64,000 bases of DNA, from positions 51,894,001 through 51,958,000 of the forward strand of contig CM060732.1 of the NCBI GenBank assembly GCA_030704615.1, given 5' to 3'. Of this stretch, positions 6,805-61,442 are shown one piece after another. Numbering within the stretch: the first letter of the stretch is position 1; the number at the start of each line of letters is the position of its first letter. The notes beneath the pieces are model-generated. The model saw only the letters and a list, made by a program, of their open reading frames with translations, did no database searches and was not told the DNA's origin. The DNA is from Takakia lepidozioides (lineage: Eukaryota; Plantae; Bryophyta). The position numbers and the translations under genes are program-made.

Positions 6805-9800
6805 ATTTTTTATTTTTTATTTTCATGTTTGAAGAGGGATGGTGGCCTCAAAGCTTTATAGATACGTGCGTAAAAACCGCAAAATACATCCTGGGGGAGA
6901 GTCAAAATGGTGGTCTGTGGAGGAAAAAATAACCTCCTGTAAAGGCGTATCGCATGGGGTACACCCAAGTTACCGAAGGGAGGGGGGAGTAGGAAATGGT
7001 GAACTAATAGTGTGTAAGCCCTGATCTGAGAAGAAACAAGGTAGACATAGGGGGGACTGGCGTTGGACAATCTAGGTGGCAGAAACTATCACAAGCATAA
7101 GACGAGGTGTTCCGCTACAATCTATCACCGAAGTCTCGGTAGTGATGTTATTGCCCTTCTGCTCTATGCTCCAAAGTCCAACTGCACCTTTGATTTGTAA
7201 GAACTCAGTTTTTGGTGTCTCCAATTGATATCCGGTGCTTCAAAGTCAGCTGGCCATTTGCCAAGCCCTGGGGATGTTGTCATTCCAAATGACTCTAGTG
7301 TCAGAGATCCTGGTGCAGATGATGTTGTCTTTAGCCCAGGTGATGTCGAAGTCCGATAACAGTTGTTGCCTCCTCCCTTCATTACACCTGCTGGAAGCTG
7401 CAAGCAATACCCACCAAGCTTTATGTCCCTCAGTCACCAAATCTGCATAGATTTTGCAGAGAGTCGCTCTGATGCTTGGCTTCTGTCCCTCAAAAATCAT
7501 TTTGCATCTATCTTTTTAGATGGCCCAGAGAGAGTAAGCTCTCAAATTAGCCCATATTGGACATGCATTCCATAAGGCCCCATTCTGCAGATTGAGAAGC
7601 AGCAGGTTGTCCGAGATGGGTGGCAGATCCATCCAAGTGAAGTAGAAAGAATTGATGAAATTCCACACCCCTGAGGCGGTCTGACAATGTAGCAGCCAGT
7701 GCTCAAAAGACTCATGATGCCCTTGATGGCATGAAACATAGATCGGGCTCAGGGCAGGGATGAAGCTTGCCACTGGCAGAATCCTATCTGCTATTTTCCA
7801 AAGGAAGGCACTCATTTTCCAAATCCTCTTTCATCCCTGGCTGTTGAGATTTATATTCCATTTGGCATTCCATTTGGCGGCAAAGCAAGAGTCTCCCAAC
7901 AAGAGCTTATAACCAAATTTTACTTTATAGCCTAGAAATGGGGTTTTCTTCACATCTTTCCATGTCCATTCACCACGGTCCAGCTGCAGTCTGCCGAGAG
8001 GGAAGCGAAGGAACTAGAGGAGGAAGATATTTTTGGCCCAACAGATATCGCCAGGAGGGGGTTTGGGATCTGGCGAGCCGGAAGCTATATCTATCACTCA
8101 GATCCTAAACGCTTCTGCACAGGGCAGGTCTCCTGCACCAACAAATTCAAGGTTGCCCTCTTGTGATGCTTTGAAAGCAAGGCTCAGCCAAATAGAGCCT
8201 TCTTTTTCCAATGACAGGATGGATGTGAAGGCCTGGTCGGAAAGGCACCCAGCCAGCATGGCAGGGTGCTTTCAGTAGTGTGTCCTCCCTAAAGCAGGGC
8301 AGCAACTGATGAGATCCCTTGCTTGATAAGATCCCAGCCGTTACGGATGGAAGAGGCTGTGAGGAGCGAGGAGAGGATGTGTGGTGCAATGAAGTCTCCT
8401 TGCTCCCATACATTTGCTACATGGGAGAGCCCCTTAGATTCCCATTTTAGGTGGGCCATGGAGCAGCCATTTGAGTGAAGGTGCCCAGGCCCCTGAATTT
8501 GTAGGGAAGGTCCTTCCCATGTGGGAACGCATCAGAGCACACCAGGGGCTACCACCACGAACTAGAGACCTGGGAATCCATTTAGCCAGGAGGGCGGTTA
8601 TCTGAGTGGGAGGATCAATTAATCCCAGCCCCCCTTCTTTTTTGCGTCTGCAGAGCTGACTCCAGGAAACCAGCGTTCGCTTAGTGGGAGCTTGGGGGTT
8701 GGCTCCCCAAAGAAAATTGCGCATCGGAGCCTTAATTCTGCTTATGTATTTGCTTCCGGGGGACCAGACCGAGGCAAAATACCATACTAATGCCAGCAGG
8801 ACTTGATTAAGCACTAGAGCTCTCCCTGCCAGAGATAGCATGCTTGAGCTCCAGAAAGCCAATTTATTACGGAGCTTTGAGAGAACAGGTTCAAATCTCT
8901 GCTCGTCTGTGAGACCAATGTCCACAGGGAACCCAAGGAGAATATGGGCTGAGCCTGGTTGAAGCCATTTGAGTCCAATATCTTACCCCCACGGGGGCCC
9001 ATGACACTTGGAAGCATGGGGTGGCAGTTCAGTCAGAAGCCCTACAGATTTATTCCAATTGACCTTAAGACCCGAGGCTAAGCAAAACAGCTGCAGGGCT
9101 TCCCTGGCTCTCACTATATTTTCCGGGCTCTCATTGTTCAGCAGCAGGGTGGTGTCATCTGCATACATGGATAGCTTAACAGATGAACCGAGAGTGAGCT
9201 TAAGACCAATTATGTCCTGCCTCGCACTGAGGTAATGACCAAAGTGCATTAGCAGCTATGAGGAAAAGATAAGGGGCCAGGGGGCAACCCTGCCTCACTG
9301 ATCTGAAGAGAGCAAAGGAGTTAGAGATTGCTCCATTTATCATGACCTTGCTGGATGCAGAGGTAAGAAGAAGCCTAACCCAATCTGAGAAGACCGGCAG
9401 CATCCCCATTTTATCCAGGACCTTATGAAGGAAGCTCTAGTCTATATTGTCAAAAGCTTTTTCAAAGTCTAGCATGAGGATAGCCAAAGGCTGCTCAGAT
9501 ATTTTGGCCTCATGAATGGCCTCATTGACAAGAACCAGGTTATCCAGAACCATCCTTCCCTTAAGAAACCCGGTTTGCTCAGGTCTTATAATTCTGGATA
9601 AAATTGGCTGAAGTCTTAAAGCCAGAGCCTTAGCTATGATCTTGTAAGATGTGTTTAGGAGTGTAATTGGACAATAGTTGGAGATAGAACTCTTGTCACC
9701 CTTTTTTTAAATCAATGTGATGAGGCCCACAGATAACTGTGAGGGCATAATACCCTTGGCAAGAACGTCATTGGTAAACTCCACAAAGTCATCTCCCATG

Positions 9801-12800
9801 CTTTGCCACAGTGCTTTAAAGAGCCCTACAGGAATACCATCTAAACCAGGTGCCTTGCCTGATTGAAGGGAGTCGAGCGCATGCCCCAGTTCTGGTTCTG
9901 TAAGAGGGGCAGACAACGTCTCTTTATCTTTGACAGAGAGGAGATCAGGAATGTTGCATAATGGTATCAGAAGCTTGATCCATTTCTGCTGAATGTGGTC
10001 TCTTAGAGAATAAGCTAGCAAAGTGGACTTCTGTTATGTTGGCCATCTCTTTTGGAGAAGAGGACGAGGAGCCATCAGCCTCGAAGAAGCTAGTCTTCTT
10101 TGCTTGGCTTTGACAAAAAAATATTTGTTCATCTTTTCCCTTTTTAGAGACCAGTTAACACCGGCTTTTCTACGGAGGTCATTGTCCTTGTCATGCTTGA
10201 ATTGCCAAAGATTGGTCTTAATGAGGACCATACTTGGGCCAGAACATTGACCAAGTCCTGGTGCTTGAGAAGGGCCGACGGGTTGAGTTTAAAGAAGCCC
10301 CTGCCTTTAGGTCTAGATCCACGGGTCGTGAATACAGAGCTGATATGAGCGTGATCGTAATCTGGCAGCACTGGACCTAGAGGGGAAGACCTAGCCCATG
10401 GAGCGATACCACTAGTACAATATATTCGGTCAAGTCTGGCCATAACTAGGTCTGGCGGAGATTTGCAATTGGACCATGTGAATCTAAGGCTTTCCTTCAC
10501 TAGGGATAGAAATGTCCACCAGCCCTACTGAGAAGCACAAAGATTCCCATGCACTAAGCTCCTCTGGCGCAAGACTAACAGAAGTTAGGTCTAATCTGTC
10601 CATGGTCCTATCAGTCATGTTAAAGTCTCCAACCATAATCCATTGATCCACCTCTGTCATCTGAAGAATTTTGGATTGCAGCATAAGCCAGAAGGAAATC
10701 CTATCTGCAATACCATTAGGAGCATAGATATTTATGAAGCCTTGTTGTTGTGGGCCTTCTTGTAGATTGTGACATTCATTTTGATAATTCTCTTGATACC
10801 ACATCTGTATGTGTTGCTCCAACATATTCAATGCCTCTGCCTTCTTTCTTAAAAGACTACCAGCCACAGCCATATTTGATCGATCATAGAAATAAGCTAC
10901 AATATGCATGTACATGTACAATCAATCGAAGGGATGGGTACAGTTCGGTGCGAGAATTGTTATGTACCGGAGCGAGTACAAAAAGCAAGCGAGGCTGTTA
11001 CAACCCTTGCCGATTCCAAAGGGGTCTTGATAAAGTGTCTCCATGGATTTCATGATTGCTTTGTCGTTGTCAAAATGATTCGATGCAACCATGGTGGTGG
11101 TGGATAGGTTCAAGAAAATGGTTCATTTTATCCCCACTAAAGAGACGGCAACGGCGCAGGAGACGGGGCGACTTTACTTCGCCCACGTCTTCAAGCATCA
11201 TGGACTCCTGAAGGATATTATTTCGGACCGCGATCCAAAGTTTACAAGTAAATTTTGGAGGGCACTTTGGAAGAAAATGGGGACGAGGCTCAAGATGAGC
11301 ACGGCCTTCCGACCTACAATGGACAGCCAAACAGAAATAGTGAACTCCGTGGTGAAGTAGATCTTGCGGAATTATGTATCGGCAAACCAGTCGGACTGGG
11401 TGGAGCACTTGGATGCGGCAGAGTTCTGTTATAATAACACAAAACACTCCGCAACGGGAGTTTCCCCTTTCATATTTGTCTATGGAAAAACACCTCTAGT
11501 GCTGACAAGTTGGGCCGCCCAGGACGGTGAGAAGCCGGCAGCAGCAGCGGTGCTGGAAGAACGCGAACATTTGTTGGAGCTCGCAAAATACAACATTGCC
11601 AAAGTTAGGAAACGGTATGAACGACAGGCGAATCAGAAGCGGAGGGAAGTTAAGTTTGAGGCAGGCGCAGAGGTCTGGTTGAACATCAAGAATTTTCGAC
11701 TACCTCTGGAAATGAGTCCAAAGTTCGTACATCCGTATGCGGGGCCCTTTCGCATCCGGAAGGTTATAAATGAGGATGTGTATGAATTGGAGCTGCCAGC
11801 AAATAGCAAGGTGCATCCAGTATTCCACGTTCCCTTTTGAAGCCTTACTTCAAAGATAAAGCGCGTCCAAATCAGCATCAGTCCACACCATTTTGGCTTT
11901 CCGCTGGGAAGACATAGTGAACCATAATGGGATAGCTAAGGGATACACATGGATTTCTAAGAAAGAGCTGCAGGAAGGCTCGTTCAGAGGATTTCACGGA
12001 AACATTATAGTTCTATATGCGGGTTTCAGGCTGGTGAACGCCATCGGTGGTGCAACCCCATCCCGTCGCCCCCACCTGGAAAAGAAGGAGAGGTGGGATG
12101 CCTCCCCTATGTCAAGACCACCAAGAGGGCTCAGCTGTCTCCTTCTGCTCCGCGTCGTCAATATGATCAAAAATGTTTAAGCTCCCAATGTATGCGCCGA
12201 AATGCGCTCCAATCTCTGGGAGAGACGCTAGATAATTATCAGGAATGTAGGGAAGGGCTATAATTCGCGGCTTGCGTGTTACTCCATCTTTGTGTCCCCA
12301 GTCTGGGGACCATGGGAAGATATGAACCTTTGAAGCGGGACTTGCGAGTGTTGAAGGCCAGAGCCCTGTCCGTCTCTTCCTTTGTCCCAAATTTAACTAT
12401 GTAAAATCCCCTGTCCATGGAGTGGCAAAAGTGATGCGAGAGGCCCCCTTCTGACCCCAAGTGCTTGATGATCCATTTTCTCGCTCCGTCACTGTCTCTT
12501 GGGCATCCTGGAAAGTACACAAGTATGCCATGTTGCATCATTTTGTTGAACTGAGCCCTCAGACATTCTAAATTCAATTGAATGATATCCTGAGAGTCTG
12601 AGATCGGGGCTATTTGGCTCCGCCCATGGGGCTAGCTCCAATCCTGACGATGGGATGGTGATCTATGGGCCCTTGCCTAGAATGGAGGGGGCATGGTTAG
12701 ATGAAGAGCGGGCCGTCCAGCTGCCTCGGCCTCTAGAGCTACCTCCTAATCCTGATCGCTTTTTACACGAGGGAGCTCCTCTGAATGCCATGAAAAGGAA

Positions 12801-13400
12801 GGAGGAGACTAGCTAACACCACTTGCCAATCACTCAGCGCCTAGCATTTCTGCTGTGGAAGGCTTAAAGGGGAACAGAGAAGAGACGAGGGGCAAGTTCA
12901 CCTTGAAATAGGTGTGGCGGAAGCGCGCAGCTTCTGGAAAGAGTAGTGAATTGAGCAAAGGCGATTGAATGAGCGATTAACGCCAAAGCGTCCCAGGGGA
13001 GAGTGGGGTGCACTGCTTAAGGCAAAGAGCTTCAGAGTCCCTAAATTCCTCGAGCCGGCGATTTAACTCGCTAAGACAGGCAGCCGCGATTGAAGAGACA
13101 AGAGGTCGAGGAGCTGACAAAACCAGGATTCTTTTAAGAACTGGAGCAATACAGCGAGGGGGTGCTGTTACGAGGACTGGATTGCAGTCCAACAGTGAGA
13201 GGGAATGGCCATAATGCGCCGCCAAGGTGAGAGGGGAGAAAGGATGCGGGGCCAAAAACGGCGTTTAACACATGCAGAAGATTAAATGGATGACGTGAAG
13301 AGAGCATGCATAAGGCCAGCAAGGCAGATTAGGGGGGGAGGGATAGATTAGACAGAAAGGGACACTTCGCACGCTGGAAGAAGGGGGAAGAGGCGAGGCA
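6805..13400 (-). mobile_element. L1-clade LINE, near full length, degenerate (ORF1 DUF4283-like; ORF2 EN-RT-zf)
   Basis: ORF1 12239-12577; endonuclease INIYAPN/VGDFN/RLDRIY (10144-10745); RT GKAPGLDG, RQGCPLAPYLF, YADDT (9000-10020); GGLGL motif and C-terminal CxxC...H...C; A-rich tail at 6805-6822; many stops and frameshifts. Confidence 0.93.
10745..11870 (+). mobile_element. Ty3/gypsy (chromovirus-type) integrase fragment nested in the L1
   Basis: MVVVDRFKKMVHFIP...IISDRDPKFTSKFW...STAFRPTMDSQTE; GPF motif and HPVFHV; in-frame stop at 11358-11360. Confidence 0.9.
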
Positions 13401-13673
13401 AAAAATCTAAGTCCCCGTCCTCCTCACCGCAAACTGCGGAGCCCTCCCCCCACCATATTTGTAATGATCTGTGGCACATACCAAGTGCCCTCTCAAAAAT
13501 TCAGACCCAAATTCCAAAAAAATCAATGGGTTGCTTTGTATGTGAAATTGTGGGGGGTGAAGATGTGTCATGTACCAGTCCCTGCAGGATACTGAATCCC
13601 AAAACAAGTGCCCAGCCCAACCCAAACAACATCAAATCCCAGGAAAGAAATTCAAGCCCGTGACCTTGCAACC

Positions 13674-14905: not shown

Positions 14906-14909
14906 TTAA

Positions 14910-28770: not shown

Positions 28771-28839
28771 AACAAAAAGCCGAAAAGGTTGTGTACTCTG
28801 ACAGTTGGGCTTCAATTTGGGTGCCTGACTGCATAAAGT

Positions 28840-30716: not shown

Positions 30717-30959
30717 GCTGAACCCAACTCTCCTGCTCCCTTCCCTCCTCTCCAAATCTTCTCTTCTCTTAACAAAGCCTGTGGGTTCTGCAGTCTCTAC
30801 TCTTGTGTCACCCTTGGTCCACAGTGTGGATGGATGAGGCCACCGAACCGACTCCAAGTTAACCCAAACAAATTTCTACCCCTGCCCATTAAATATTCAT
30901 ATCTGCCCCAGAATCTGACCGTGTAAGACTTTCAGATAGTCTGACCCGAAATTTAAGAG

Positions 30960-40600: not shown

Positions 40601-40988
40601 ACGCTTCCGCTCATTGTAACCACACTTAATTTGCTACTCTTGTCGTTCTAGTTCTTGTGCGCAGCGGAAGCGTGGTGGGCCCATAACCTATAGAGAACTA
40701 GAGAAGTATAGCAGTCAAGCATACATGAAATAGAATGTGGTATTACGATAGAAACAACAACAACACCCTTGGGGTGTACACAATGTACTTACATAGGTAA
40801 CAACTACCTGCTAACGACTATCCGCACAGAATAAGCGCCAAAGCCACATTCGAAGTTGATGTCCAGCTCATTTCCAATGTGCCACATGTCTACCATGCAC
40901 TGACTATTCAATCAAAATCTACAGTGTAATCTGTAGCTTACAAACTCTTGAAATGTCCTTTCATACATTAGATGAATGTAGAGGTTGA

Positions 40989-43900: not shown

Positions 43901-44184
43901 ATGTTCGCCTGATCCAGCTTGTGCGTGGGTCGCCTTACCCGCATAGGCAAGTCTGTGCTGAATTTGAAGTTGATTGCGGGTCTCTTGTTGGGCAGAAAGC
44001 AACAGTCTAGTGGACGATGGTTGACAAATACAGCTTGGCAGGTGGTCAAGTCTGGGCCTAGCACCGGAGCGGCATGCACAGTGTGTAGCTTCCTACTACA
44101 CCAGGCCATAGATACTAGCATAATGGCCCACAACAATTTCTGTGTGCCCAAACTACATCCTGGATGCAGTCCTTCCATACCCAT
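40989..44184 (-). CDS. PPO: Polyphenol oxidase, secreted type, 4 exons (44184-43790, 42904-42429, 42025-41817, 41681-40989), 590 aa
   Basis: CuA HCSYC...HANW..PFHRWY; CuB HPHGSIH...DPLFFAHHTNVDRLW; DWL domain; exon lengths 395+476+209+693=1773 nt stay in frame; first intron GC-AG. Confidence 0.9.
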
Positions 44185-44899
44185 AGTTGTTGCCCACCAA
44201 TCCTGAGACCAGCTAAGAAATCAGCTGGACTCTGTGACCGAGAGACTAAATGACTTGTATGGAGAACAATGCCTCAAGCGAAGGATTCTCCCTGAAACTG
44301 CAAAGCTTCGGAATAGCCCCTTCCGCACTTGTTACAACTGCTTATGATGGCTCTCTTGTAGAGACAAAATTTGCCTAGACATGCAAGTCAATGTCCAGAG
44401 AAGATGTGGTCAAAGTACCTTACACCAAGTCAAGGCGTTGATTGGTGTGTTGTGCTGAGTCATGCTCACTAGTCTGCCGAAGCTTTTCTTTTCTCTCCCT
44501 TGAGGACGACGGCCCAAAACGTATCAAACCCCAAGTGGGGCGTTCCATAGTACGTGTCAAGCCCACAGTCAGTTTTTGCAACACGTGTCAATCCCCAAAA
44601 CTCATACTTGTACTGCGGTACACAAGGTAGATTGCCCCAAACGGAACCGAGCATGTAGTAGGTATATATAGAGACGGGTGGGTCCTCCGTCAATCTGATG
44701 CCCACTTTCCAGTGTCCACGTAAATCACGTGAGGAGGCCCACATTCCATGGACATTGGTGTCACCATTCTAATCAGTCCGGCCTGCAGTGTTAGAGGGAT
44801 GAGTTCATCCAATAGATTAGTAAGTCAGTATTAGTAAGGGAACTTGATGGTTACACCAGTTATCTTGACACTTCACTCCCGACTCTTCATGTAAGTTAA

Positions 44900-46342: not shown

Positions 46343-47068
46343 GTTCTAACTTCTCCACTTGGAAACTCAGAATGTTATATTTGCTTAAAAAAGAAAATTA
46401 TGGGATTTAGTGATAGGCACTGAACAGTGAAATTAAACCTACAAGTATTGTATCTCTTGGAGGAACAGTAGTCAATCCTCCTGCTATTGGACAAGGATCT
46501 ATCTCAAACTGGGATGATAGAGACAAATTTGCTCAAATGATAATTGTGGATAACGTTAAAAATTCATGTCTAGGTCATGCTACATCAAGTCCGGACATAT
46601 CCCTCCCGATCTCTCAAATCTGAAGAAATAGCCCCTTTGGCTTCTGTTATGGCATTTGAAAGAATAACATTAAAAAACTAAGCTGAAGGGTGGGGGCTTA
46701 CTACAATATGAGAGGGGCTGGTTGACGTGCTTTTTTACTTGCACTGGACCTCCTTCTTGTGTGTGATCTGCATTAGCAACGGCTAATCAGCCCTTGCTAT
46801 ACCAATTTTATGGAAAAAATAAAATAAAGGGGGATGCTTACATGTTCGGTGCAAGAGGGGCTGGTTGGCCAGCCTTCCTACTTGCCCTCCTTTCCCTCCC
46901 ATGCATGATCAGCCGTAGCACAAGAGCAATGGGCTAATCAGCCCCTCTTTTAACAAAAATTTAAACAACTAAAAAAATAAAGCTCAATGAAAGGGAGTTA
47001 CAAGCGGGTAATGGGGGCTGGTTGGCAAGTCCCTCCCTGCTTTGGGCTCCCTCCCTCTCATGCAGAAT

Positions 47069-47893
47069 TTAATGGAGACATTCAAAAAATACAAACGTTC
47101 CAAATGTCCCCACCAGGAAGGAAGGTTTCCTGACAAGCGATTCGCCGACAGATCTAACACGACCAGTTTCGTGCAGGTACTGATACACAGGGGAATAGAT
47201 CCTCCCAGGCTTACGTTCATGAGCAAAAGCACTCGTAGATTTTCAAACCCTAATATATGTAAAGGAAGCTCACCTGCCAACAAGTTGTAGGACAGGTCAA
47301 GGACGGAAAGGTTACTGCAACTCTGCAAAGCAGCGGGAAATCCGCCTTCGAACCAATTGTTTGAGAGCGATACAATAGAAAGGTTTTGAAGAGTACCCAA
47401 CACATCGGGAATTGCACCAGAAAGGAAATTGTTTGAGAAGTCCAATGTTTCCAAGGCTGTGGAGTTTCCAACGGATAAGGGGGAAGCTACCTAGCCTGTA
47501 AACGAGTTGGAGTTGAGATCTAGATATTGTAAGTTCACAAGATTTCCTATCTGGGGAGGGATGCTCCCAGATAATTCGTTACCGCTCAGGTCCAGATGTC
47601 GCATATTAGACAGGGACCCAAGCTGGGAAGAAATTGGCCCCTGGAGTTCATTTTGCTCAAGAGGAGAGCTAAGAGAGAGCTGTGTCACTTGGCTGTAGGC
47701 ATTGCAAGTAACCCCTGTCCAGTTGCAAGGAGAGCTATCAGCGGCGACCCAATCAAAGAGCTGGTCTTGGCCCCCTGTCAGCCCCTCCTTGAAGGCCAGC
47801 AAGGCCGAAATGTCTGAACCTCCGACACAAACCGGCCACAGCACACCACAACACAATAGAACCTGGCCCGCAGAATGCCCCGCTTCTGACCAT
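47069..47893 (-). pseudogene. LRR receptor-like protein, copy B, 3'-truncated
   Basis: Near-identical to 3026-3853; 5-bp insertion CTAGC at ~47491 causes a stop/frameshift; 3' part deleted. Confidence 0.88.
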
Positions 47894-48244
47894 TCCAGTT
47901 AGAAGAGTCTTCCAAATACTGTTGAGCTGTGGTATAAAAGAGTTTATGATGGGGCAGTTTTTCTTTCCTTTTCTTTTTAAATTTTACGGAAAGGGCATTT
48001 GTTGAGTTGGAATATCTGGAATTCGGTACTTGAGAGCTCAAAGGTTTTCTTTTATTGTCGGTTGTAAGTTCCCCTTGTAAGCCTCACGCCCCGTGTGGTT
48101 GTTTATTTTTCCCAGGATTTTATCAAAGCAATTGCCAGGCTTTTTGCGCCCTTTCCCCCAAGAACAAAAAAAAATGTCATCTTTTCCATGTTTGTTGCTG
48201 TTTTTTCTACACCTGGGAGCTACAGCTCACAAAGCAGGCCCCTT

Positions 48245-48420
48245 AATAGTGAGAGGCGAAAATAACCTCTTTCACTGTAACCGCGCCATGAAGGCGTATC
48301 AGGGGGACACCGCACAGGGGAGGGGGAGAAGAGAATACCACACCCGTCAAGCAGCAGGATTTGACCCCAGAATCATCTGGGTGGCACTCGGTGCACTTAA
48401 CCAACTGAGCTACTGTTGGT
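48245..48420 (-). mobile_element. tRNA-derived SINE (paralog of 5035-5210)
   Basis: Same A/B boxes and 3' tail. Confidence 0.7.
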
Positions 48421-48711
48421 TTTTTAACCATTAAGCGACCATCTAAGTTTTGGTGGGGCCACCCCCAAAATCCTATACACCCTCGTGGATGAGGGTGTAA
48501 CTCCTTACCTACAATCATCCACAAATTTGAACCTTATAAATACCTATGTAACTACCACATCCATCTACTCATAAAGTTTCAGCACATTTGACAGTTGGAA
48601 TTTGCACATTATAGCAAAAGAAAGCACCACTTTTACAAGTTCGCTCCCCAAAAATAGGGATAACTTTGGTTTGACCATACATTTGCAGTATCGGGTTGAA
48701 TTTTCATGTCA

Positions 48712-51215
48712 ATTTTTATTTTTATTTTTATTTTTAAAGAGGGATGGTGGCCTCAAAGCTTTATAGATACGCGCGTAAAAACTGCGAAATACATCCTGGG
48801 GAGAGTCAAAATGGTGGGTCTGTGGAGGAAAAAATAACCTCCTATAAGTGTCGTATAGGCGTATCGCATGGGGTAGACCCAAGTGACCGAAGGGAGGGGG
48901 GAGTAGAAATGGTGAACTAAAAGTGTGTAAGAAAGTGTGTAAGCCCTGATCTGAGAAGAAACAAGGCAGACATAGGGGGGACTGGCGTTGGACAATCTAG
49001 GTGGCAGAAACTATCACAATCATAAGACGAGGTGTTCCGCTACAATCTATCACCCAAGTCTGGGTAGTGATGTTACTGCCCTTCCTGCTCTATGCTCCAA
49101 AGTCCAACTGCACCTTTGATTTGTAAGAACTCAGTTCTGGTGTCTCCAATTCATATCCGGTGCTTCAGAGTCAGCTGGCCATTTGCCAAGCCCTGGGGAT
49201 GTTGTCATTCCAAATGACTCTAGTGTCAGAGATCCTAGTGCAGATGATGTTGTCTTTAGCCCAGGTGATGTCAAAGTCCGAGAACAGTTGTTGCCTCCTC
49301 CCTTCATTACACCTGCTGGAAGCTGAAAGCAATATCCGCCAAGCCTTATGTCCCTTAGTCACCAAATCTGCATAGATTTTGCAGAGAGTCGCTATGATGT
49401 TTGGCTTCTTTCCCTCAAAAATCATTTTGCATCTATCTTTCCAAATGGCCCAGAGAGAGTAAGCTCTCAAATTAGCCCATATTGAACATGCGTTCCATAA
49501 GGCCCCATTCTGCAGATTGAGAAGCAGCAGGTTGTCCAAGATGGGTGGCAGATCCATCCAAGTGGAGTAGAAAGAATTGATGAAATTCCACACCCTTGAG
49601 GCGGTCTGACAATGTAGCAAGCAGTGCTCATGGGACTCATGATGCCCTTGATGGCATGAAACACAGATCGGGCTCAGGGCAGGGATGAAGCTTGCCACTA
49701 GCAGAATCCTATTTGCTATTCTCCAAAAGAAGGCACTCATTTTGGAGGCTTTGTGCTTGGCCTAGATATCTTTCCAGATCCTCTTCCATCCCTGGTTGTT
49801 GAGATTTATATTCCATTTGGCGGCAAAGCAAGAGTCTCCCAATAAGAGCTTATAACCAAATTTTACTTTATAGCCTAGAAATGGGGTTTTCTTCGCATCT
49901 TTCCATGTCCATTCACTAGGGTCCAGTTGCAGTCTGCTGAGAGGGGAGCGAAAGAACCAGAGGAGGGAGATATTTTTGGCCCAACAGATCTCATTGCCAG
50001 GAGGGGGTTTGGGATCTGGCGAGCCGGAAGCTATATCTATCACTGTGATCCTGAACGCTTCTACACAGGGTAGGTCTCCTGCACCAACAAATTCAAGGCT
50101 GCCCTCTGGTGATGCTTTGAAAGCAAGGCCCAGCCAAATAGAGCCCTCTTTTTCCAATGCCAGGATGGCTGTGAAGGCTTGGCTAGAAAAAACACCCAGC
50201 CAGCATGGCAGGCTGCTTTCAGTAGTATCTCCTCCCTGAAGCAGGGTAGCAACTGATGAGATCCATTGCTTGATAAGATCCCAGCCGTTGCGGATGGAAG
50301 AGGCTGTGAGGAGCGAGGAGAGGATGGGTGATGCAATGGAGTCTCCTTGCTCCCATACATTTGCTACATGGAAGAGCCCCTTAAATTCCTATGTAGCCCA
50401 TTTCTTGCTAAAGGAAGTCAATTCAGCATTGTTCAAGATAGGGTTTCCGAACAATGGCTGACGAATAGCTTCCTCAAAGCAGGCAGGCCTCTTTTGAGAC
50501 AAGAATGGCTTCACTGCTATCCAAGCAGCTCAGATGGAGTTCCAAGAAGAGGATCCCTTACCCTTGTTTTTAGGTGGGCCAGCCATTTGAGTGAAGGTGC
50601 CTAGGCCCCTGAATTTGTAGAGAAGGTCCTTACCATGTGGGAACGCATCAGAGCACACCAGGGGCTACCACCATGAACTAGAGACCTGGGAATCCATTTA
50701 GCCAGGAGGGCGGTTATCTTAGTGGAAGGATCAATTAATCCCAGCCCCCCTTCTTTATTGGGTCTGCAGTGTTGACTCCAGGAAACCAGCGCTCGCTTAG
50801 TGGGAGCTTGGGGGTTGGCTCCCCAAAGAAAATTGCACATCAGAGCCTTAATTCTGCTTATGTATTTGCTTTCGGGGGACCAGACCGAGGTAAAATACCA
50901 GACTGATGCCAACAGGACTTGATTAAGCACTAGAGCTCTCCCTGCCAGAGATAGCATGCTTGAGCTCCAGAAAGCCAATTTATTACGGAGCTTTGAGAGA
51001 ACAGGTTCAAATCTCTGCTCGTCTGTGAGACCAATGACCACAGGGAACCCAAGGAGAATATGGGCTGAGCCTGGTTGAAGCCAGTTGAGTCCAATATCTT
51101 GCCCCCATGGGGGCCCATGACACTTGGAAGCATGGGGTGGCAGTTCAGTCAGAAGCCCTACAGATTTATTCCAATTGACCTTAAGACCTGAGGCTAAGCA
51201 AAAAAGCTGCAGGGC
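48712..51215 (-). mobile_element. L1 LINE 3' part (paralog of 6805-9099)
   Basis: Near-identical ORF2 C-terminal region; keeps ~50388-50570 that is missing in A; truncated at 51215. Confidence 0.92.
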
Positions 51216-51320
51216 ACCGTCTGAACAACTCTCTCTGCCAAGCCATCGGCCTCAGGATGATCCCGAGAAGTGGTGCGGTGATCTATCAAGGCTTTATCAC
51301 ACAAAGCCTGAAACTTCCCC
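51216..51320 (-). mobile_element. LTR-retrotransposon integrase core fragment (Ty3/gypsy type)
   Basis: Manual minus-strand translation GKFQALCDKALIDHRTTSRDHPEADGLAERVVQT fits the HPxxDGxAER catalytic-Glu motif. Confidence 0.8.
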
Positions 51321-51519
51321 AACCTCATCCATCACCGCCGCCTTGGATGCCAACTCCCACTGAACCTCGAGCATCTCCCACGTGTGCCATGGATGTCTGC
51401 ACCCCGTGGTCCTCACATGCTCGCCCCCACTCACTGCCTGTACCGTCTCGGTAGGCAGAGAGACCATCGAGGGAAGTATACTCCGCACTCTGCGCTGCTG
51501 CCATAGCCAAGTTGATAAT

Positions 51520-52040
51520 CCAGGTCAAGCAATTGAGACCCATTGCTTGCCCCAACACCTGAGACGTGATGCCTCAGAAGAGAAGGCACCGCCGTGGTCC
51601 CAGTGGAAAAACCCATAGCCCGCTCGCGCTCATCAGCATTAGGCTCCACTAACTGCTGCAACTGAGTATCCCAAAGGAGGCCAGGTCCACTATCCCAGAA
51701 AGCATGCGATCCTAAGAAGCTGAGTAGTGTAGGTAGTGCTGTTCGTGGTTGACCCACCTTGTTGGCCACTGCCAAAGACGAACGGTCATTGTGTCTCACG
51801 CTGAGACTGCCTCCCTGTGTCCAAAATGCTATCCACTGTGAGGTGTGTTGGTCGTTGCACCCCATCAAATGCACGCTTGAGTAGTGCAGGTGGCATCAAG
51901 TTAGTCCACCATAGCCGTGGACGATGAGCCCGTGACCCCACTGAAGCTGCATCCAGCAATACTGCTGACCCAAGCCATGACCGGACTTGATGCACACTGG
52001 CCATCACCCTGGCCCGAGAATCGCCCATCAGGGACGGCAA
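51520..52040 (-). pseudogene. DNMT3-like C5 cytosine methyltransferase fragment (motifs VIII-X), retrotransposon-borne
   Basis: LDAASVGSRAHRPRLWWTNL (motif VIII), EPNADERERAMGFSTGTT (IX), LGQAM (X); frameshifted; motifs I-VI absent. Confidence 0.75.
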
Positions 52041-52610
52041 TCACCGAGACAGACATCCCAACAAGTACCACACCCACCTTGCGTGCACCAGCTCCCTGCC
52101 AACATACAGCCAACCATGTAAGTGCCCCGCCCCACAAGACCTCACAAGCATGAACTGTATGCACTCACAGAAACACAGGAACACAATCACCTTGCTCGTA
52201 TGCGATGGGCCTCCCGCTAGCAAATGCCAAGGCACATGAACGTGGAGCTACACTGGGGACAGTAATGGTGAGTCCGCTTGTGACAACGTGCACACTGCCT
52301 GCGGAGCGTAGAATGCAAGCTTTGGTGGGCATCGCTCGTGCCTTATTGCCCTTAGCTATTTTTTATAAAAGCGGAGTCCTCGCCTCACCACTAAAGTGAC
52401 ATATCCACATTTCTAAACTTGTTACAGGTTTCCAGAAATTTTAAAGGTCAAATTCCTAGATTTTCTAAATGTCTTTTTGTACATGAAGCCTGTGGGGTGG
52501 TTTCAAAAGCCATGAATATGCTTGAACTTCAAAATGGACATTCCCAAAAATTAGGACCAAGAAAAGGAATGTATTTTGGAAATCGCCGTGGTGACAACGT
52601 TATATGCACT

Positions 52611-53254
52611 CCCTTAAGCGCACAATGGTCTCCGTTGACTTTTTCCAAAAACATTACGAAAAATGACAATAATTCTCAGGAAGAAAATAATTTCCAAAAA
52701 CTAACCGCACATTACCTCGCCACCTTACCTCCTGCATGCACCTGCCAGTTTTCAGGGCAACCAGAAAAGATCCAACAAAACCCCACCGTTGGAAGTGGGC
52801 CCATTTTTGGCCCCTTGTGCAATAAAAAATAGTTTCCAGGGAGCTTTTTGGAGTTTTGGGTGACGGGATGAAGTCAGAATCTGCTGATTCTGCGACCACA
52901 TCATCCCTCTTACATCTGTCATCCAACAAACCTATTTTCATTGGATTTGGCCAAGAATTGTGGTGTTGACACTTGGTCAAACATGGGGGGTCATTTTGTG
53001 GATTTTCTTATTTGGTGCTGACGCGAAGGAATCCAATGTGGTAAGGAAAGCGCGGGACGGGAGCTGGCCGCCAGACGCCCATCAAGCGTAACGGCATATC
53101 TTTGCCCTAACCTAGTGGATTCTCATCTGTGGGCACCCACTTGGCTGCCGAACCCCACCGCACAAAAATCATGCAATTTGGCCAAAATCTGAAAAAGTTA
53201 TTAACTCTTGAGTAACCCACAAGGCCCTGTGCGGGCCTGGTGGGCGCTTAAGGG
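52611..53254. mobile_element. piggyBac-like MITE family 2 (paralog of 14261-14905)
   Basis: CCCTTAAGCGCACA ... TGGGCGCTTAAGGG|TTAA. Confidence 0.72.
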
Positions 53255-54258
53255 TTAACATGCTGCTGTATTTTCTAACGCATCCAATGGTGGAATAAAG
53301 AAAACAGTCGGGCAAAAGTTAGACCAGCAAGTTTTGGCCATTGGGGCTGGGAATTACCTACACCGACAGAAGATTCCAGCAACTTCCTTAGGGCCATGTC
53401 AACTAAATGCTCTTGCACCCTATGTGGAGCTGCCAGGCTGTCTTCATGTCACGGGCCGGAACAGGCCCTGATGGCCACCTCCGGCGTCACAGCCCGGTTG
53501 TGCATACCCAATCGAGGCCACGCAGATGGTCAACTCTGCATGGTCCCCTCTCCAAGATGGAAATAGATGACCCTCGAATAATCCTGCGAGGGGTTGCTTT
53601 TATTCAAATTCAAAGCATTAAATGCCAGAGGGTGGGCCATCAGGTCCAAAAACAAATTTAAAAAAAAAATCTGAACAAATGACGGGCTTTTTTTCACACC
53701 GCAAGCACTAGGCTTACCCCACGAGTTTAAGGCAAGCTTGTGAGGTGGTGGGCCCACTGGCCTGAGCTCAGGGAGGCCCGGCAGACTCTGGCATACTACT
53801 TGTCAAATGTCTTCCCCCATTGTGAAGGTGGGGAGCGCTCCACACCTCCTGCTCCCTCCTCACGCTCCCCACCTTTAGGACCATGTTCCCCAACATTCTC
53901 CAATTTTGCTCCCATGTTCCCGGTCCAAGATCCTTGCTCCCCATAGTGGGACAGGGGAGCGGGAAGGGGAGCAAGCTGCATTCCATAGGGCGAGGAGGGG
54001 AGCAGGGTCGAGATCCAGGAGCGCGGAACGGGGCGAGGAAGGGAGCAAGGACCGGGAACAGGGGAGCGAGCCGCGTTCCACAAGGCGAGGAGGGGAGCGG
54101 GGACCAAGAATAGGGGAGCGAGGACAAGGGACATGGATAGGGGAGCGGGACTGGGAACAAGGAGGAGACAGAGGGAACAGGGGAGCGTAGCGACGATCTT
54201 GGACTTAGGATTATTTTGGAGATGAAAAAATATATTATTCAGTCCCATGTGCAACCTA

Positions 54259-54497
54259 TCAGTCAACATGACTCTAGTGACACGAATTGAATCTCATACC
54301 TGTTCATTGCATCACACATCACGTAATCACCACACTACCATCCACAAATCTACAAATTTAGGCTTTAATCTACAAATTCAGTCAACATGACTCTAGTGAC
54401 ACGAATTGAATCTCATACCTGTTCATTGCATCACACATCACGTAATCACCACACTACCATCCACAAATCTACAAATTTAGGCTTTAATCTACAAATT
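54259..54497 (+). repeat. Tandem duplication, 2 x ~119 bp
   Basis: TCAGTCAACATGACTCTAGTG...TAATCTACAAAT occurs twice. Confidence 0.88.
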
Positions 54498-56140
54498 CAG
54501 GCTCCCAGGTGAGAGGGGAGCAAGGGGGGTGCGGATTTGACAATGCGCCCCGCCGGGACGGCGCCGGTATGGCCATCCCCGGCGACCGTACTGGCAAGGC
54601 TCTTGCGCTTGCATTCAACTAGTCGGGTAAGCGTAGTTTGCTCCTTTTCACACATGCCGCGACCCGTTTCAGGTCGCATAGGCAGTTAAGGGTTAATGTT
54701 ATGGTTATTATCATTTCTTCAATCGAGTGAGCAATACAAAATATTTTATTTTTAAGTTTCACATTTATTTTGTAGGTGTTATGTGTCATTTTTTTAGCAA
54801 TTTTATTCTATAAGCCTATAGACATGGGTGGATACTGGATACACATATATTAATTAGAAAAGAGAAACACCTTGGAACAACCACTCACAAATCAGGCCCC
54901 TGCATTATAGTTAGAAGAGAAAAGAGGACCAAACACGAGCTCAAGGGACACTGCCCAAAGGAAGGGGAAGAAGATGTAGGATTTGAATCCAGAATCACTT
55001 GGGTGGCATTTAATGCTCTATCCAACTATCAGCTGATTATTTATTATTGGTTATTGATTCCATTATTTATTTGTTTTTTTTTAATGCTAAAACTGTTCCA
55101 ATAGTATTGTGTCATGATGGTATGGTTTTATACGGAAGACAATAGGAATAGTGAAAATAATAATAATGTAAGAACTGAATGGACGCGTGTGATCTGAAAG
55201 TACTTTAGCCACATTCCGGCAACTTGGGCTCCTCCGGTGGGGCCCCTGTCAAATCCTCCCTACCCCCTCTTACCTCGGTTTCACTATTAAACTCTTAGAA
55301 CGCAAGTGAGTGTAAGTTGTGGTGGGTAGTGTGACGGTAAGGTCATAGCATTTGAGCGGCAAGGTTTAGGGTTCGGTTCTTGGTGGCAGGCTCTCATAGT
55401 GTAGCCCCGGTCGCTGTAACCCTCCAATTGGTGTATGTAACCCCCGTTTCTCATGTGGTTAGTCCGTTTTATACTTAGCCACATCTGGACTTAGTGAAAT
55501 TTCGAGACCAAGTGTGGGTTACACCGACTTGTGTAACCCCGAGTGGTGTTACACACCTCGTCGTGTAACCCGATGTAACTCCAAGTGGAGTTACACACCA
55601 CGTCATGTAACCCCGGCTGGAGTGACACTCCTTCAGTTCCATGTCACTCTCAAGAGAGGGTGGGGAAGATTTGACATGCCGGAAACCAGCATACCAGGAC
55701 AAATGCCGCACACGAAAACCAAGATTGCATTATATCTGGGACTATTGAATCATATTTCATATTTCTTAAAAAAACAAACTACCTAGTCACTTCTATTATT
55801 TCATCGTTCATTTTTGTAATAATAATTAATATAATAACTGTGTCATTGTACTTACAAATGTGGATCCTTTTTTTATAGGACAAGGGAGTCAACAATAATT
55901 GGAATATTTTGACTTGAACTAACACCAACAGTTAATAAAACATGGAATTACATGTTTTTAGTATATCTGACTTTGTAAATATATTTTGGACATATGACTT
56001 GACATTGTCCATCAGGATATTTATCGATCATACGTGGTGGCCTTTGGGATTATCAATCTTACCTATCATTACACCCCATTGCATCATCATATAAATGAAA
56101 TAAACTAGAGGCCAACCAAAGCAGCTGACAGAGTTACCTA

Positions 56141-56720
56141 GGCAAGTAATAGAAAATGCCCGGGAGTTGAATGTGCCCGGGCCGGTAAGCCGGTAAGCGT
56201 ACGTGGCCCGCCGCCCACCCGCAGCCGCGCCCCCCTAGTCTGGCGCCTCAGATCCGCGTGGTCACCGCGACGCGTCTTGGTAGGCCCCACGCAGTCTAGA
56301 GACCCTTTTTCTGTATAAGTAACATTAAATTCAACCAGTTTTCGTGTAGCAGCACGCAGCCCAGTGGTGATCGCTGTTGCCTGCATGCGGAGGTGACGGG
56401 GTCGAACTTCAACGGTTCTACATCTTAGGCAATTTACGTTGCTACTTCAAAAAAATTCTAAGTCCTGAGTCGATGCCCATCTTCACGCATAGTCATACAT
56501 ATATGGAAATACATGAGAAATACATGGTCATGCATGTGGGGTCTCAGGTTCGGGTACCAATTAGTGTATGATGTCAGATAATACTAGAGTTTTTGTTTGA
56601 TTTTGCAACTAAAGTTCCAAGTTTAAATGCTCACTTTTTTTCTTTTCTTTTTTAATTTTTAAAAAGGAAACCTGGGAGCCATGCTCACAATTCAGGCCCT
56701 TGAGGAGGGGGAAAAATTAA
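56141..56720. mobile_element. MULE-like element, left arm
   Basis: Long (~400 bp) imperfect terminal repeat starting GGCAAGTAATAGAAAA directly after target GAGTTACCTA (56131-56140); absent from block A. Confidence 0.7.
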
Positions 56721-56739
56721 TCCCCTTTCAAATAAGCCA

Positions 56740-56880
56740 TTAGGCACACAGGTGGGAAACGTCACCACCAGACCAACCGGTCACGAACGATCCACACACC
56801 AAGCAGGGCAGCGGTTTGAACACCGAACCACCAGGGCAACACACTGTGCACTTACGAGCTGAGCTACCAGCTGATGTGCT
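56740..56880 (-). mobile_element. tRNA-derived SINE head at the inversion breakpoint
   Basis: Minus strand AGCACATCAGCTGGTAGCTCAGCTCG...GTTCAAACC. Confidence 0.55.
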
Positions 56881-57518
56881 GTAACACTTGTAAGGGCTTG
56901 TAACTGTTTTAATTATTTTGTCACTAATCGTCAATAAATCTCTCAAGGGCTTCCTCCCCATGCTTTCTCCTCAAATTTTTATTGTAAACATTTCTAAGTT
57001 AGTCCACTGTTGCCTATAAACTGTCCTATTACTACATGTGCATTTGAAACAAATCATTTGCAAGCTTCATTTGCAATTCCAAGAGTCATTGCATATCCAG
57101 CTCTTCGCAAGCCTAGATAAAAATATATCTATTCATAGCACTGGTCAATAGCTCAGTTGGATAAGCACCGAGTACCACCCAGGAGATTCTAGGTTCTTGA
57201 GCAATACCTTGTTGGGTGTCATATTATAATTCTCCATTCCCTTGTGAAACTTCATGACGAGGTTACTGAAAGAGTCCTCAGAAGTGGACTGAGGGACATA
57301 TTATTAACATAAGAAGCTAACTCAATTCAGCTAACTACTATCTAAAACTGGTTAAAAAGATATATCCTTGAGCCCTGTGCTTGGCACCTCATGACAAGGT
57401 TACTATGAAAGAGGTTATCTTCTCCTCTAACTATATTTAAGGGTGGGGAATATATTAACGTTTAGCTTGGTATAAAGTTTGAATTTGAATGCTAATACAA
57501 AAAGTAGTAGAAACCAAT

Positions 57519-57936
57519 TCATGTGGTCCATGCCGGATAATCACCATTACCATCATAGGCATAAATAACAGCCTTTCCATCATCTCGCAATATCAATGTG
57601 CAATCATACCCGGAGTTCGACACTCGATTGTCCCATAAGAACGAGTTGGTCATTGCATCTATAATCACCATGTGTGAATCTGTATTTAGGTAAAGGTAGC
57701 ACTGTGAACCTTGTACTCCCTTGGTCTGCGTACTCCACACAAGAGTGTCGCCCTTGTACAACACCAAATTGCAATCATCTTGCATTGTCAAGAGATATTC
57801 GAGATTGGTGCTTTGGAGAGATTGACCCATATACAACGAGTTGGTGGCGCTAAGGGTCGGAGGAATTGGGCTACAAGTGCCGATAATGTCAATATGGCCA
57901 CTAACAAGATTATGTGTGCATACCTAAACCACCCAT
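57519..57936 (-). pseudogene. GNA lectin copy B (inverted); signal peptide destroyed, possible 103-aa ORF from new ATG 57830
   Basis: 7-bp deletion gives ATG CAC ACA TAA, followed by a 16-bp deletion; lectin domain stays open with QDDCNLVLY. Confidence 0.75.
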
Positions 57937-58191
57937 ATTTCTCTTTCTTTGGTGCAAGACAATTGTGGAGTTTTCCTTATGCTCAAGCATGTGATCTCTA
58001 TTGAAGCTAGCTGGTCCAGTCTTTTGGTTCTCTTATATGGAATGCAGCTCAGATTTATATGTTGTTTGATATTATAGCCAAAGTAAGGGTATATTACATA
58101 TATCGAATTAAAAAATTAAAAATGACATCTGCGATGCGATTTGTTTGTTTTATTATTAGCGTTTGATAGTCTCAAAGTACGTAGGTAACTC

Positions 58192-59450
58192 GGCAAGTAA
58201 TAGAAAAGGCCCGGGAGTTGAATGCGCCCGGCCCGGTAAGCGTGCGTGGCCCGCCGCCCACCCACAGCCGCGCCCTCCTAGTCTGGCGCCTCAGATCCGC
58301 GCGGTCACCGCGACGACGCCCATGTCTTGGTAGGCCCCACGCAGTCTAGAGTCTCTTTTTCTGTATAACTAACATTAAATTCGGCTGGTTGTAATGTAGC
58401 AGCACGCAGCCGAGTGGTGCGACCGCTCTTACTTGAAAGCGAAGGCTACAGGGGGAACTTCAACGGTTCTACAACTTAGGCTTTTTGCGCTGCTACTTCA
58501 AAAAAAATCTATGTCTTCACTCATAGTCACAAATGTATGGAAATACATGAGAAGTATAGGGTTGTGGGCCCGGTCTCAGGTTTACATATTGTCAAATCTC
58601 ATGTATTATGCAAATACATGAGAAATATATGGACATGCATGTTCCCGATAAGCTCCCAATCTTTGCAATTTACTTCAAAAAAATTGTAATTTTGTGAAAG
58701 TAGTTACATGGTGACTATACTTGGATGACCATCTTAAAAAATAGTCATACAGGAGAAAATGTATGGTCAGGCATGAGTACATGAGCTGTCTTCATGCAAA
58801 AGTCTTGAATGGTATATATTATAATTATGTATGACAAATATATCATACTTCAAACCATGTATTTCCATGTAGTATTAATACTTTATCTCTATGCATAAAA
58901 ATCGTGAACTCACGGATTCAATTTACAATGGATGAGATGGTGCCTATGAATCTACTAATATCATTCTTTTTATTTTCAATCGTTGCAAAGTCAAACATGA
59001 TTTGAATGCATTGTCATATCTATTAGCATAGTCGTACATACATGATGTCATGTCTCATTCATGCACATTGCTTGTGGCATATGTATGACAATGCATCAAA
59101 CTTGTCATGTATTTTCATGCATTATTAAAACTCTATTTCTATGCATACAAGTCATGAGGTCGTGGGTTCATATAACAATGAATGAGATGATGAGTATGAA
59201 TCTTAATATCTTTACTAATAGAATTCTTTTATTCTTATTACTTGAAACATAAAATTGCATGTGTCATACATGGACTACATGAAATCTGGTATTATTTTCA
59301 TGCACAGTCACACATAAGAAATCAGTTGCATTGTCATACATATATATAGACATACGATGTGATGTGTGTCCATGCAAGACTTATGTCTGAAGACAACTGA
59401 TGTATTTCCATGCATGACCATTTATTTCTCATGTGCGACTATGCAAGAGA
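58192..59450. mobile_element. MULE-like element, inverted right arm plus internal AT/CATG-rich sequence
   Basis: Starts GGCAAGTAATAGAAAA after TAGGTAACTC (58182-58191), the reverse complement of the 10-bp target. Confidence 0.7.
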
Positions 59451-61442
59451 ATGGTGTCAAAATAAATAAATTTGTGAACACGTTGCTCAAGAAAGTGTAT
59501 TTAGTATATAATGGGATGATGTAGTTCATAGATTTATCCTACCCAATGGCGGGTATAAATTAACATGAGGGTATGTTGTAATCAAGGGTATATTTATCCC
59601 ATATGCATGGTGGGCATGGAAAATTTATGACTACATAGAACCATACAAGCTGTGCATTAGGGCCAAAATCTGATATACTTGTTATGAATGTATCATTTAC
59701 TCAAGGGTATTATATAGGGTAAATGATTTTATTTATATCTTGTATTTATACATATCCATCATTACAAAAACACCAGGGTAAATGTATTTGCATATATTAC
59801 TCAAAATAAGAGGTATTTACCTGGCTTCCCTTCAATTGCATGACCCTCTTCTTCAGTCCATTCCTGAAAAGGATATTCCATCGCATGATTGTTTAGGATT
59901 GAATGTCGAAGGTGGAAGCCAACCTAACAAATGTGAAGAGGATTTCGTGGATCTCACTCTACAATCCTCACCCTCCCTGTTAAGTGTCAAGGGTCTGAAA
60001 TCTATCTCGAGAATATCAGCCATTGAGGGCACGGCTGAGGCTGCGGCTCCGCAGCACACTGTTGCCTCTCTTCCCTCATCACGAGGGTTGGACAACCCAA
60101 ATCAGAAGGAGTCAGGTAAAATTACTTATATCTGAATTCTTACTCGTCCTTTTGTTTTCCTTAGTACTGGGTCTGATGTTCTTGTTTTACTCCAGGCCAG
60201 AAAATCTGCGGATTATGACCTTCCTGTCAAACGACGTCTTCATTGGAATTATGTTCCGAAGTAATCCCTTCATTACGTGTGTATTCCATTCAGGATGTGG
60301 AGTGCTTAAGGGACAATTTCTATTCCGTTCCCCTTTTCGGCAATTCTTTGGACAAGGACAAGGACGAAACAATTGCAACTTCTCGGCTTCCCGACCCTGC
60401 AGTGTTGGCTCAATGTTCTGCACCAAGGAAGCAGAATAGAGCCCCCAAACCATTTCCATCTCTTTTACAAATCGGTTCCACCAGAAAGAAGTTTGTCTTC
60501 AGAGACAAAGCAGACTCGAGGAAGAAAATGAATACCTCGGACATACCGGGGTCTCGTCAAAACACGTCCGTTGGGATCCCAAGTCCGCTAGCGAGACTTT
60601 CCAATAAGGCAACATTGGTATTATTCGATATCATTTCTCCATTTTTTTTTTTTCTTTTGTGTTCGTTTGGTTCTGCACTAATTTACTCCATCTTTTCTCA
60701 ACAGGCGGGGATGCAACACGATACCTTCATCAATTTCCCTCTGTACAAGGTACTTTCTTGAACCTCCACTTGGCAGTCGATGTTCCTCTTGTTCCCAATA
60801 TTAACCCTCATCTCGAAACATTCCAAGCCCACAACATATACAAGTTTTTGCCACTTTTTGCACAATCGTGTTGATCTTCCGTACACTCAATCATTCTGGG
60901 TCATGGGTATTTTCATGGCAGAAACACTAATGTCAGTGTGTGATTAACTTGCTCATGATAACTTTGTCTCTCATCTTTTACATGCAACAGCGGGGAAGAG
61001 GAAACAAATGTTGTTAATTTTGAGTGTCAACGGACTCCTGTGCTACCGGCCACCCCCAACCGGCGGTGAACTGTTTAAGGTTTCTTTGGGAATGTGACAC
61101 TTCAAGTTCCTGACAGACCGTTTGTGGTGCCTCGGCCTGGAGTCTCAACCTCTTCAGCAACATTGTCATTCTCAATTTGAAGCTTCTTAAAATTCGCTTC
61201 AACTTTTCATTTGCAATTTTTTTTTTTGTTGAGTGGTTGATGTCAAGCACTCGAATATTTCTTGCCTGCAGATAAACCTAGTCAGTAAAACAGAGGACGT
61301 GTTCAAACAAAAATATAAAAAAATGTATTTAAAATGCAAACATGTTTTACACTTATATGAAGGGCGTACGTACGTCAACATCACGCCACCGAAGAAGTTT
61401 GACAAAAGATGATGGCTTCCCAAAAGGCCCTTCAAGAATCGG

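Follow-up and report, generated by a model that had tools for sequence, protein, structure and literature searches.

A scrap of a methyltransferase-bearing Gypsy-type retrotransposon family in the moss Takakia lepidozioides

The window analysed here is a 64,000-nucleotide stretch of the Takakia lepidozioides genome. Its minus-strand segment 52031-51215 (0.82 kb in total) is a dead, twice-cut scrap of a Gypsy-type retrotransposon family that encodes a DNMT3-like cytosine methyltransferase, with an inner deletion that joins the ORF1 tail to the integrase. The family is intronless and reads gag-protease-methyltransferase (gag-PR-DNMT, ORF1), a stop codon, then reverse transcriptase-RNase H-integrase-PHD finger (RT-RH-IN-PHD). 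Taken jointly, this identity, this anatomy and an enzyme that acts catalytically on the DNA of the element itself form our leading reading, which we judge likely on the sequences compared. The parts of the locus are:

52034..52285 (-): flank starting TGTCAC, low-copy and common to the paralogous block (from depth, with no match to family repeats)
51499..52031 (-): DNMT3-like methyltransferase, C-terminal half, behind motif VI and holding VIII, IX and X (from relatives and tree)
51316..51498 (-): ORF1 (gag-PR-DNMT) tail past the methyltransferase, cut at 51316 (aligns with P0001 and others to about 51309)
51316..51322 (-): microhomology TTGGGGA, 7 nt, where the deletion brings ORF1 tail and integrase together (from host-run contigs)
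51215..51322 (-): integrase core, 35 codons, stopping just past the third catalytic residue (83% to Sphagnum fallax P0039)
48586..51215 (-): LINE-like element, 3' part, into which the scrap runs with a 1-nt overlap at 51215 (90-95% to 6668-9099)
9100..13673 (-): the paralog's 4.57-kb segment at the scrap's position (from block comparison)

The motifs LDAASVGSRAHRPRLWWTNL, ERERAMGF, LGQAM and HRTTSRDHPEADGLAER, which a first-pass annotation had read from the letters alone, are present here on the minus strand, co-oriented, without introns and in three frames. For the methyltransferase half we use the standard motif numbering (VI, VIII, IX, X). Searched against relatives with tblastn, the region falls into the pieces 52031-51801, 51799-51578, 51561-51499 and 51500-51309, that is, three frameshifts (near 51800, at 51577-51562 and at 51500). 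The first piece, 84 residues long, matches 28 proteins among 138 candidates at 60-92% identity (best E 2e-37), with PF00145 found in 16 of the 28, well beyond what chance would give; those with a species name are proteins of Calypogeia fissa, Sphagnum troendelagicum, Marchantia polymorpha and M. paleacea. In a tree of 42 rows, made by a quick method and leaving out host DNMT3, DRM and Klebsormidium sequences, the window piece and P0001 stand together inside a Marchantia/Calypogeia/Sphagnum clade (SH-aLRT 100). The 35-residue integrase piece is 71-94% identical to integrases of family loci, 83% to that of S. fallax P0039, and has a median identity of 57% to 113 other integrases of methyltransferase-bearing Gypsy elements.

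ORF1-type contigs from the host align down to 51316 and one integrase-type contig up to 51322, which places the inner joint. Judged from relatives, the deletion took about 2.3-2.4 kb (RT, RNase H and the N-terminal half of the integrase). The proposal of an internally deleted Ty3/gypsy-type copy thus holds: the relatives are intronless, with zinc knuckle and protease fused to the methyltransferase and RT-RH-IN after it. Given the family order gag-PR-DNMT-stop-RT-RH-IN-PHD, what had been called a short linker between methyltransferase and integrase is a deletion product, the cut ORF1 tail, and not a native spacer. None of five window pieces matched PF00145 or PF00665 at E<=1 in the profile search that the annotation had suggested. 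The best PF00145 stretch, around motifs IV-VI and seen in each relative, is deleted here, which explains the null result; we dropped it as a refutation of methyltransferase identity, since the region that Pfam recognises is missing from the scrap. The interval 50604-51251 also has no Pfam match. No open frame spanning motifs I, IV and VI is left in the window copy, which begins past motif VI and carries the three frameshifts; with the SAM-binding and catalytic motifs gone, it cannot function.

The family is very abundant in the host, with copies in the thousands by rough inference. In host DNA run X1, 9191 contigs align to 1.5 kb and the summed depth over the scrap is 3.7e5-1.4e6, against about 60 for single-copy flank and 60-550 for most flank bins; summed contig depth does not equal copy number, and X1 and X2 may be the sample behind the window. 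Among the X1 contigs, 1642 are at least 99% identical. Other family copies in the host, which the annotation had thought possible, are seen where X1 contigs outrun the scrap: past 52031, 50 continue into the ENV motif (motif VI); past 51215, 32 extend into the rest of the integrase; and past 51316, 26 run on with other, ORF1-like letters. Two contigs carry about 30 letters past the shared part at 52031, and none of the contigs listed is shown to bridge the joints at 51316 or 51215. Contigs of runs X14 and X15, guessed to be RNA, cover parts of scrap and flank with differing letters and were not taken as evidence of expression.

The scrap lies in a segmental duplication, 1046-19692 versus 46926-59821, of about 88-99% identity in blocks with one block inverted; it also holds an LRR gene fragment, a LINE and a bulb-type lectin-like gene (18143-18676 / 57522-57923). 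The paralogous block has the TGTCAC segment at 13925-13674 and no methyltransferase. In the other copy of the block the 0.82-kb scrap takes the place of 4.57 kb of the paralog (13673-9100), made up of the end of a TGTCA...TGACA stretch, the 5' half of the LINE and, nested on the other strand, a Tf2-like integrase with an SH3_Tf2-1 match at 11361-11837 (E 3e-11). What we take by eye to be LINE reverse transcriptase motifs lie near 9160-9300 in the paralog. The nested Tf2-like Gypsy integrase with its SH3 domain (11000-11840, +) has no relation to the methyltransferase-bearing family. Within the TGTCA...TGACA stretch, 13812-13917 has an approximately 92% match to a 2.2-2.3-kb contig in X1, X2 and X14 and to a short one in X15.

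The insert has CCCTG on either side. This, with the single clean replacement, leads us to favour by a small degree an arrival as filler DNA: a 4.6-kb deletion in the duplicated block would have been followed by break repair with DNA copied from the abundant family. A serious competitor, which we hold to be somewhat less probable, is that a whole element of the same family inserted after the block was duplicated and decayed in place, losing its 5' half, middle, and 3' end with host flank to separate deletions. The microhomology at the inner joint suits such decay; an otherwise whole genomic copy (L047/L048) has a deletion from methyltransferase to integrase, and the roughly 10% divergence of the duplicated blocks allows time. 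Against it, three deletions that leave no terminus are required, and the net difference from the paralog is one clean replacement bounded by CCCTG.

Elsewhere in the window, a single long open reading frame at 29367-30803 (-) encodes a DUF6817 protein whose best named match is Sphagnum balticum (65%), followed by Ceratodon (55%), liverworts (53-54%) and flowering plants (about 50%); on these identities the host would be placed among land plants, and likely among mosses. By eye, 38961-44220 (-) reads as pieces of an LRR receptor kinase and frames resembling polyphenol oxidase. A DUF7869 match at 23410-23799 (-) (E 6e-29) is probably a DNA-transposon remnant, with similar transposon-like frames at 22795-23304 and 61446-63526. 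Degenerate tandem repeats occupy 20856-21572 and 25431-28931, and the latter array recurs near 37959-38706.

The anatomy of the family comes from named relatives and from a metagenome scan that found 64 loci, or 54 when near-identical ones are counted once. We take the metagenome loci as peat-moss-like because one of them has exactly the integrase of S. fallax P0039. Viral contigs scanned by pattern gave 25 matches, none confirmed. The named relatives show a zinc knuckle, a protease motif and the methyltransferase, then RT and RNase H, and by reading of locus layouts RT lies behind the methyltransferase in 42 of the 64 loci. Whole copies are gag-PR-DNMT-RT-RH-IN-PHD elements of 9.1-9.2 kb with RVT_1, RT_RNaseH and rve domains, the integrase standing ahead of the PHD finger.

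The order gag-PR-RT-RH-DNMT-INT that had been expected is not that of this clade, in which the methyltransferase lies between protease and RT. The domain is present in 137 of 150 more distant representatives; it lies behind RT/RH in 80 of them and before RT or after protease in 14, and the remaining 43 have no assigned position. The profile used to find them included RNase H, integrase and PHD columns, so this list favours RT-RH-DNMT-IN and is no census. That order belongs to other, apparently algal relatives; the names among them are chlorophyte only (a Scenedesmus sp. PABB004 cluster and a partial Monoraphidium match). These more distant sequences include over 100 clusters of Gypsy-PHD polyproteins of less than 50% mutual identity (P0124-P0271), in most of which the DNMT3-like domain stands after RNase H and ahead of integrase; its position varies between clades, and the named members are chlorophyte. 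A sister clade (P0040-P0056; L046, L052, L055-L057) has a gag-PR-DNMT ORF1 of 1200-1450 aa and a domain about 50% identical.

The stop between methyltransferase and RT is TAG in 35 and TAA in 10 of 47 aligned sites, the other two reading TAC. CAACC(C/A) follows this codon in 45 of the 47, in frame with RT, and an in-frame ATG stands 6 nt past the stop in 45 of the 47; the diverged L024 keeps TAG CAACCA without the ATG. The sequence CARYYA is a leaky-stop context, which the context of the family's stop resembles; no paper on the read-through motif turned up in the literature searched. We lean towards read-through of the stop, by which Gag-PR-DNMT would outnumber Pol. Re-initiation at the ATG past the stop is possible instead, and with either one Gag-PR-DNMT would be in excess.

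The annotation had placed the enzyme nearer DNMT3 than MET1 or CMT, and comparisons of the family domain by sequence, profile and fold bear this out. By sequence, the L001 domain has human DNMT3A as its best match (E 6e-10), with DRM at 1e-3 and HhaI at 0.04; the family profile gives DNMT3A 1e-19 versus DRM 2e-10. The L001 structure model (pLDDT 90.8) scores Z 28.6 against DNMT3B (275 aligned, rmsd 2.6) and Z 27.4 against DNMT3A; M.MpeI (Z 25.0), DNMT1 (19.1) and ZMET2 (17.9) come after these. The domain is thus nearer DNMT3 than DNMT1/MET1, CMT, DRM, DNMT2 and bacterial enzymes, and in the relatives it has motifs I (FxG), IV (PC), VI (ENV), VIII (RxR), IX and X in unpermuted order. The ESM Atlas returned generic methylase clusters only.

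The methyltransferase has been under purifying selection between lineages. Its dN/dS is 0.21 in 94 diverged pairs, which mostly run through two loci (L024, L038) and so are not independent, while the 1024 close pairs give 0.62, the kind of value that decaying copies should show. Three of 48 methyltransferase domains are free of stops, and the window copy compared with the loci has dN 0.24 with dS saturated. Each of the six motifs looked for is still present in several long ORF1 proteins, one of which is Marchantia Mp4g09160 (P0029, an 18-member cluster).

The enzyme would be produced at Gag level ahead of the leaky stop, packed in the particle and used there to methylate the element's new cDNA. 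Its fusion to Gag would bring it inside the particle, where cDNA is the DNA at hand; we regard methylation of cDNA in the particle as an evenly balanced proposition. That the enzyme is kept for another use, such as methylation of host DNA, whether around the insertion or across the genome, methylation of RNA, or binding of nucleic acid without catalysis, seems to us rather unlikely. In the accessible parts of PMC5890265, the related Klebsormidium enzyme gave no methylation in yeast, a result that its authors call inconclusive, and they list RNA methylation and host benefit among the options. Against such a use, land-plant and algal members alike retain the SAM-binding, PC, ENV and RxR motifs, and the Gag fusion would put the enzyme in the particle together with cDNA.

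The ends, like the stop and the primer site, were seen in peat-moss-type relatives and not in the host's own copies. A whole co-linear LTR pair is absent: the annotation's paired LTRs give way to split repeats, A...B-A-B or A...B. Three loci (L036, L045, L049) read A1-interior-B1-nn-A2-nn-B2, where A measures some 338 bp and B some 111 bp; a purine run before B1 serves as the polypurine tract of a Ty3/gypsy element. Target duplications of 4 bp surround the TG...CA ends in nine loci with both ends, seven perfect and two with one mismatch. In the same three split-repeat loci CHG is at 0.6 and CG at 0.55 of expectation, both depleted; the window scrap 51316-52031 (CHG 1.09) and L024 (CHG 1.21, CG 0.28) are not depleted in CHG.

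Behind A1, the leader finds its best complement at one site inside A in 12 of 19 5' repeats, and in nine of those 12 the site lies 25-27 nt after a TATA-like box; in the other 7 of 19 this self-primer site is not the best match. Pairing of 12-15 of 15 letters occurs in 8 of 19 repeats and for 0-3 of 200 control words. The element RNA's own 5' end probably primes cDNA synthesis, as in Tf1. The B|A joint is a palindrome, GACA-GC-TGTC, whose spacer is GC in 3, AT in 2, AC in 1 and TC in 1 of 7. We think it reasonably probable that the true LTR is B-nn-A and that circularised cDNA integrates after being opened at the palindrome within it. Two-LTR circles would give A-int-B-A-B, one-LTR circles A-int-B (L041, L047, L053, L061) and circles of truncated cDNA A-truncated-GT-B (L031, with 3' ends L026 and L029), so the three end forms are consistent with circles cut at one site. 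The model also predicts A-B-A-int-B, seen in none of 20 loci with a 5' end, an absence that its simple form leaves unexplained. Circular intermediates are usually regarded as a dead end for LTR elements; a DDE integrase acting on one, if true, departs from that view.

The same observations bear on a more conventional element, with a 5' LTR starting TGTCAC at 52285, the order RT-RH-DNMT-IN and the methyltransferase natively beside the integrase, which we consider highly improbable and largely refuted. The family A repeat does also start TGTCA, the paralog has a 360-bp TGTCA...TGACA stretch (13925-13566), and RT-RH-DNMT-IN is the order in 80 of 137 more distant relatives. Yet the TGTCAC segment (52285-52034) fails as the element's LTR: its depth in X1 is 90-283 (paralog copy 59-425) against 3.7e5-1.4e6 over the fragment, low-copy flank beside high-copy interior; it occurs in the paralog without a methyltransferase; and it is unlike the family repeats, blastn of the window against A and B repeats giving no match better than E 0.06, with repeats taken from peat-moss-type loci rather than from the host's own copies. 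No target duplication surrounds the paralog stretch (ACGT / CATC), the window falls in the PR-DNMT clade, and host copies go on past 51316 into ORF1 and not integrase. A chance adjacency of a host DNMT3 gene fragment and an unrelated integrase, for which the lack of Pfam matches in the window pieces and the DNMT3-like fold could be cited, is refuted: the relatives lack introns and have the enzyme joined to a zinc knuckle and protease with RT-RH-IN after, and both pieces share the very high depth; the integrase piece is also closest to the same family. The case that the annotation had named as going against it, intron-containing host genes never linked to RT or integrase, did not arise among the relatives compared, which are intronless and linked to RT-RH-IN.

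With the scrap read as part of this family, a broader picture can be proposed, plausible in outline and doubtful as a whole. Gypsy elements with a PHD finger would form an ancient group of the green lineage that bears a DNMT3-like enzyme in algae as well as in mosses and liverworts; its land-plant branch would have moved the enzyme onto Gag in front of a leaky stop, would pack many copies of it into every particle, would pre-methylate its cDNA and would insert via a circle opened at the palindrome, with near-intact ORF1s sitting in Marchantia as 'hypothetical protein'. If true, thousands of copies in a moss would be a mobile source of de novo methylation and may shape the host methylome. With the family, the range of retrotransposons that bear a methyltransferase reaches beyond algae into land plants, including the tractable model Marchantia, where ORF1 proteins such as Mp4g09160, with all tested catalytic motifs, make it testable why a transposon would bear an enzyme of the kind that silences it. 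Unlabelled ORF1 genes can also confound counts of methyltransferase genes and the reading of methylation mutants in bryophytes.

A land-plant report of such a Gypsy family was not found in the literature searched, which mostly excluded subscription journals and Repbase-type records. The accessible part of PMC12344493 places transposon-borne DNMT3 in 'streptophytes and dinoflagellates' and refers for this to de Mendoza et al. 2018; Marchantia is absent from the text and readable supplements of that 2018 paper (PMC5890265), and the accessible part of bioRxiv 10.1101/363937 holds nothing on transposon-borne methyltransferases. The family enzyme shares catalytic fold and motif order with DNMT3A/B; from host DNMT3 (animals, early land plants) and DRM it differs in being only 23-24% identical, in lacking PWWP and ADD domains, in not being permuted as DRM is, and in its fusion to Gag and protease.

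The primer site complementary to the predicted own 5' end, in place of a tRNA, is known from Tf1/Sushi and plant Tcn1 elements (Neumann et al. 2019, PMC6317226). As far as that source is accessible, these are chromoviruses with ordinary LTRs, unlike the family with its PHD finger, methyltransferase and split repeats, and the words 'methyltransferase', 'PHD' and 'Marchantia' were not found in it. Gypsy-7a_cRei of Chlamydomonas reinhardtii (Craig et al., PMC9940879), likened by its description in the accessible text, shares the PHD finger and has unequal LTRs (the left without the last 8 bp of the right), with no methyltransferase among its listed domains. The Symbiodinium elements also bear cytosine methyltransferases; in the available portions of PMC5890265, SymbioDIRS-Dnmt3 methylates CG de novo in yeast and, with SymbioLINE-Dnmt, is described as an independent capture. 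Their backbones are of tyrosine-recombinase or LINE type, in contrast to the DDE integrase and 4-bp target duplications of the family. Membership in the tyrosine-recombinase DIRS/PAT group was likewise rejected, given the rve integrase and these duplications.

The closest known system is KnitGypsy-Dnmt3 of Klebsormidium nitens, which the accessible parts of de Mendoza et al. 2018 (PMC5890265) describe as having its methyltransferase in the Pol ORF, DIRS-like repeats and purifying selection; no named Klebsormidium sequence was among the relatives found. Both have an intronless, unpermuted Dnmt3-related domain in a Gypsy element. Compared by description, both have the split layout of L036, L045 and L049, the DIRS layout being given in the review file of that paper as A1 and A2 flanking the ORFs with two B around A2. 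In KnitGypsy-Dnmt3 one Pol ORF holds the methyltransferase along with RT and RNase H, whereas in the family the enzyme ends ORF1 before a conserved stop (45 of 47 sites). The host here is a land plant, and the copy number looks far higher, as far as the 33 DNA_methylase genes listed in all for Klebsormidium allow the comparison. The family is a land-plant form of a known kind of element, with the enzyme placed differently.
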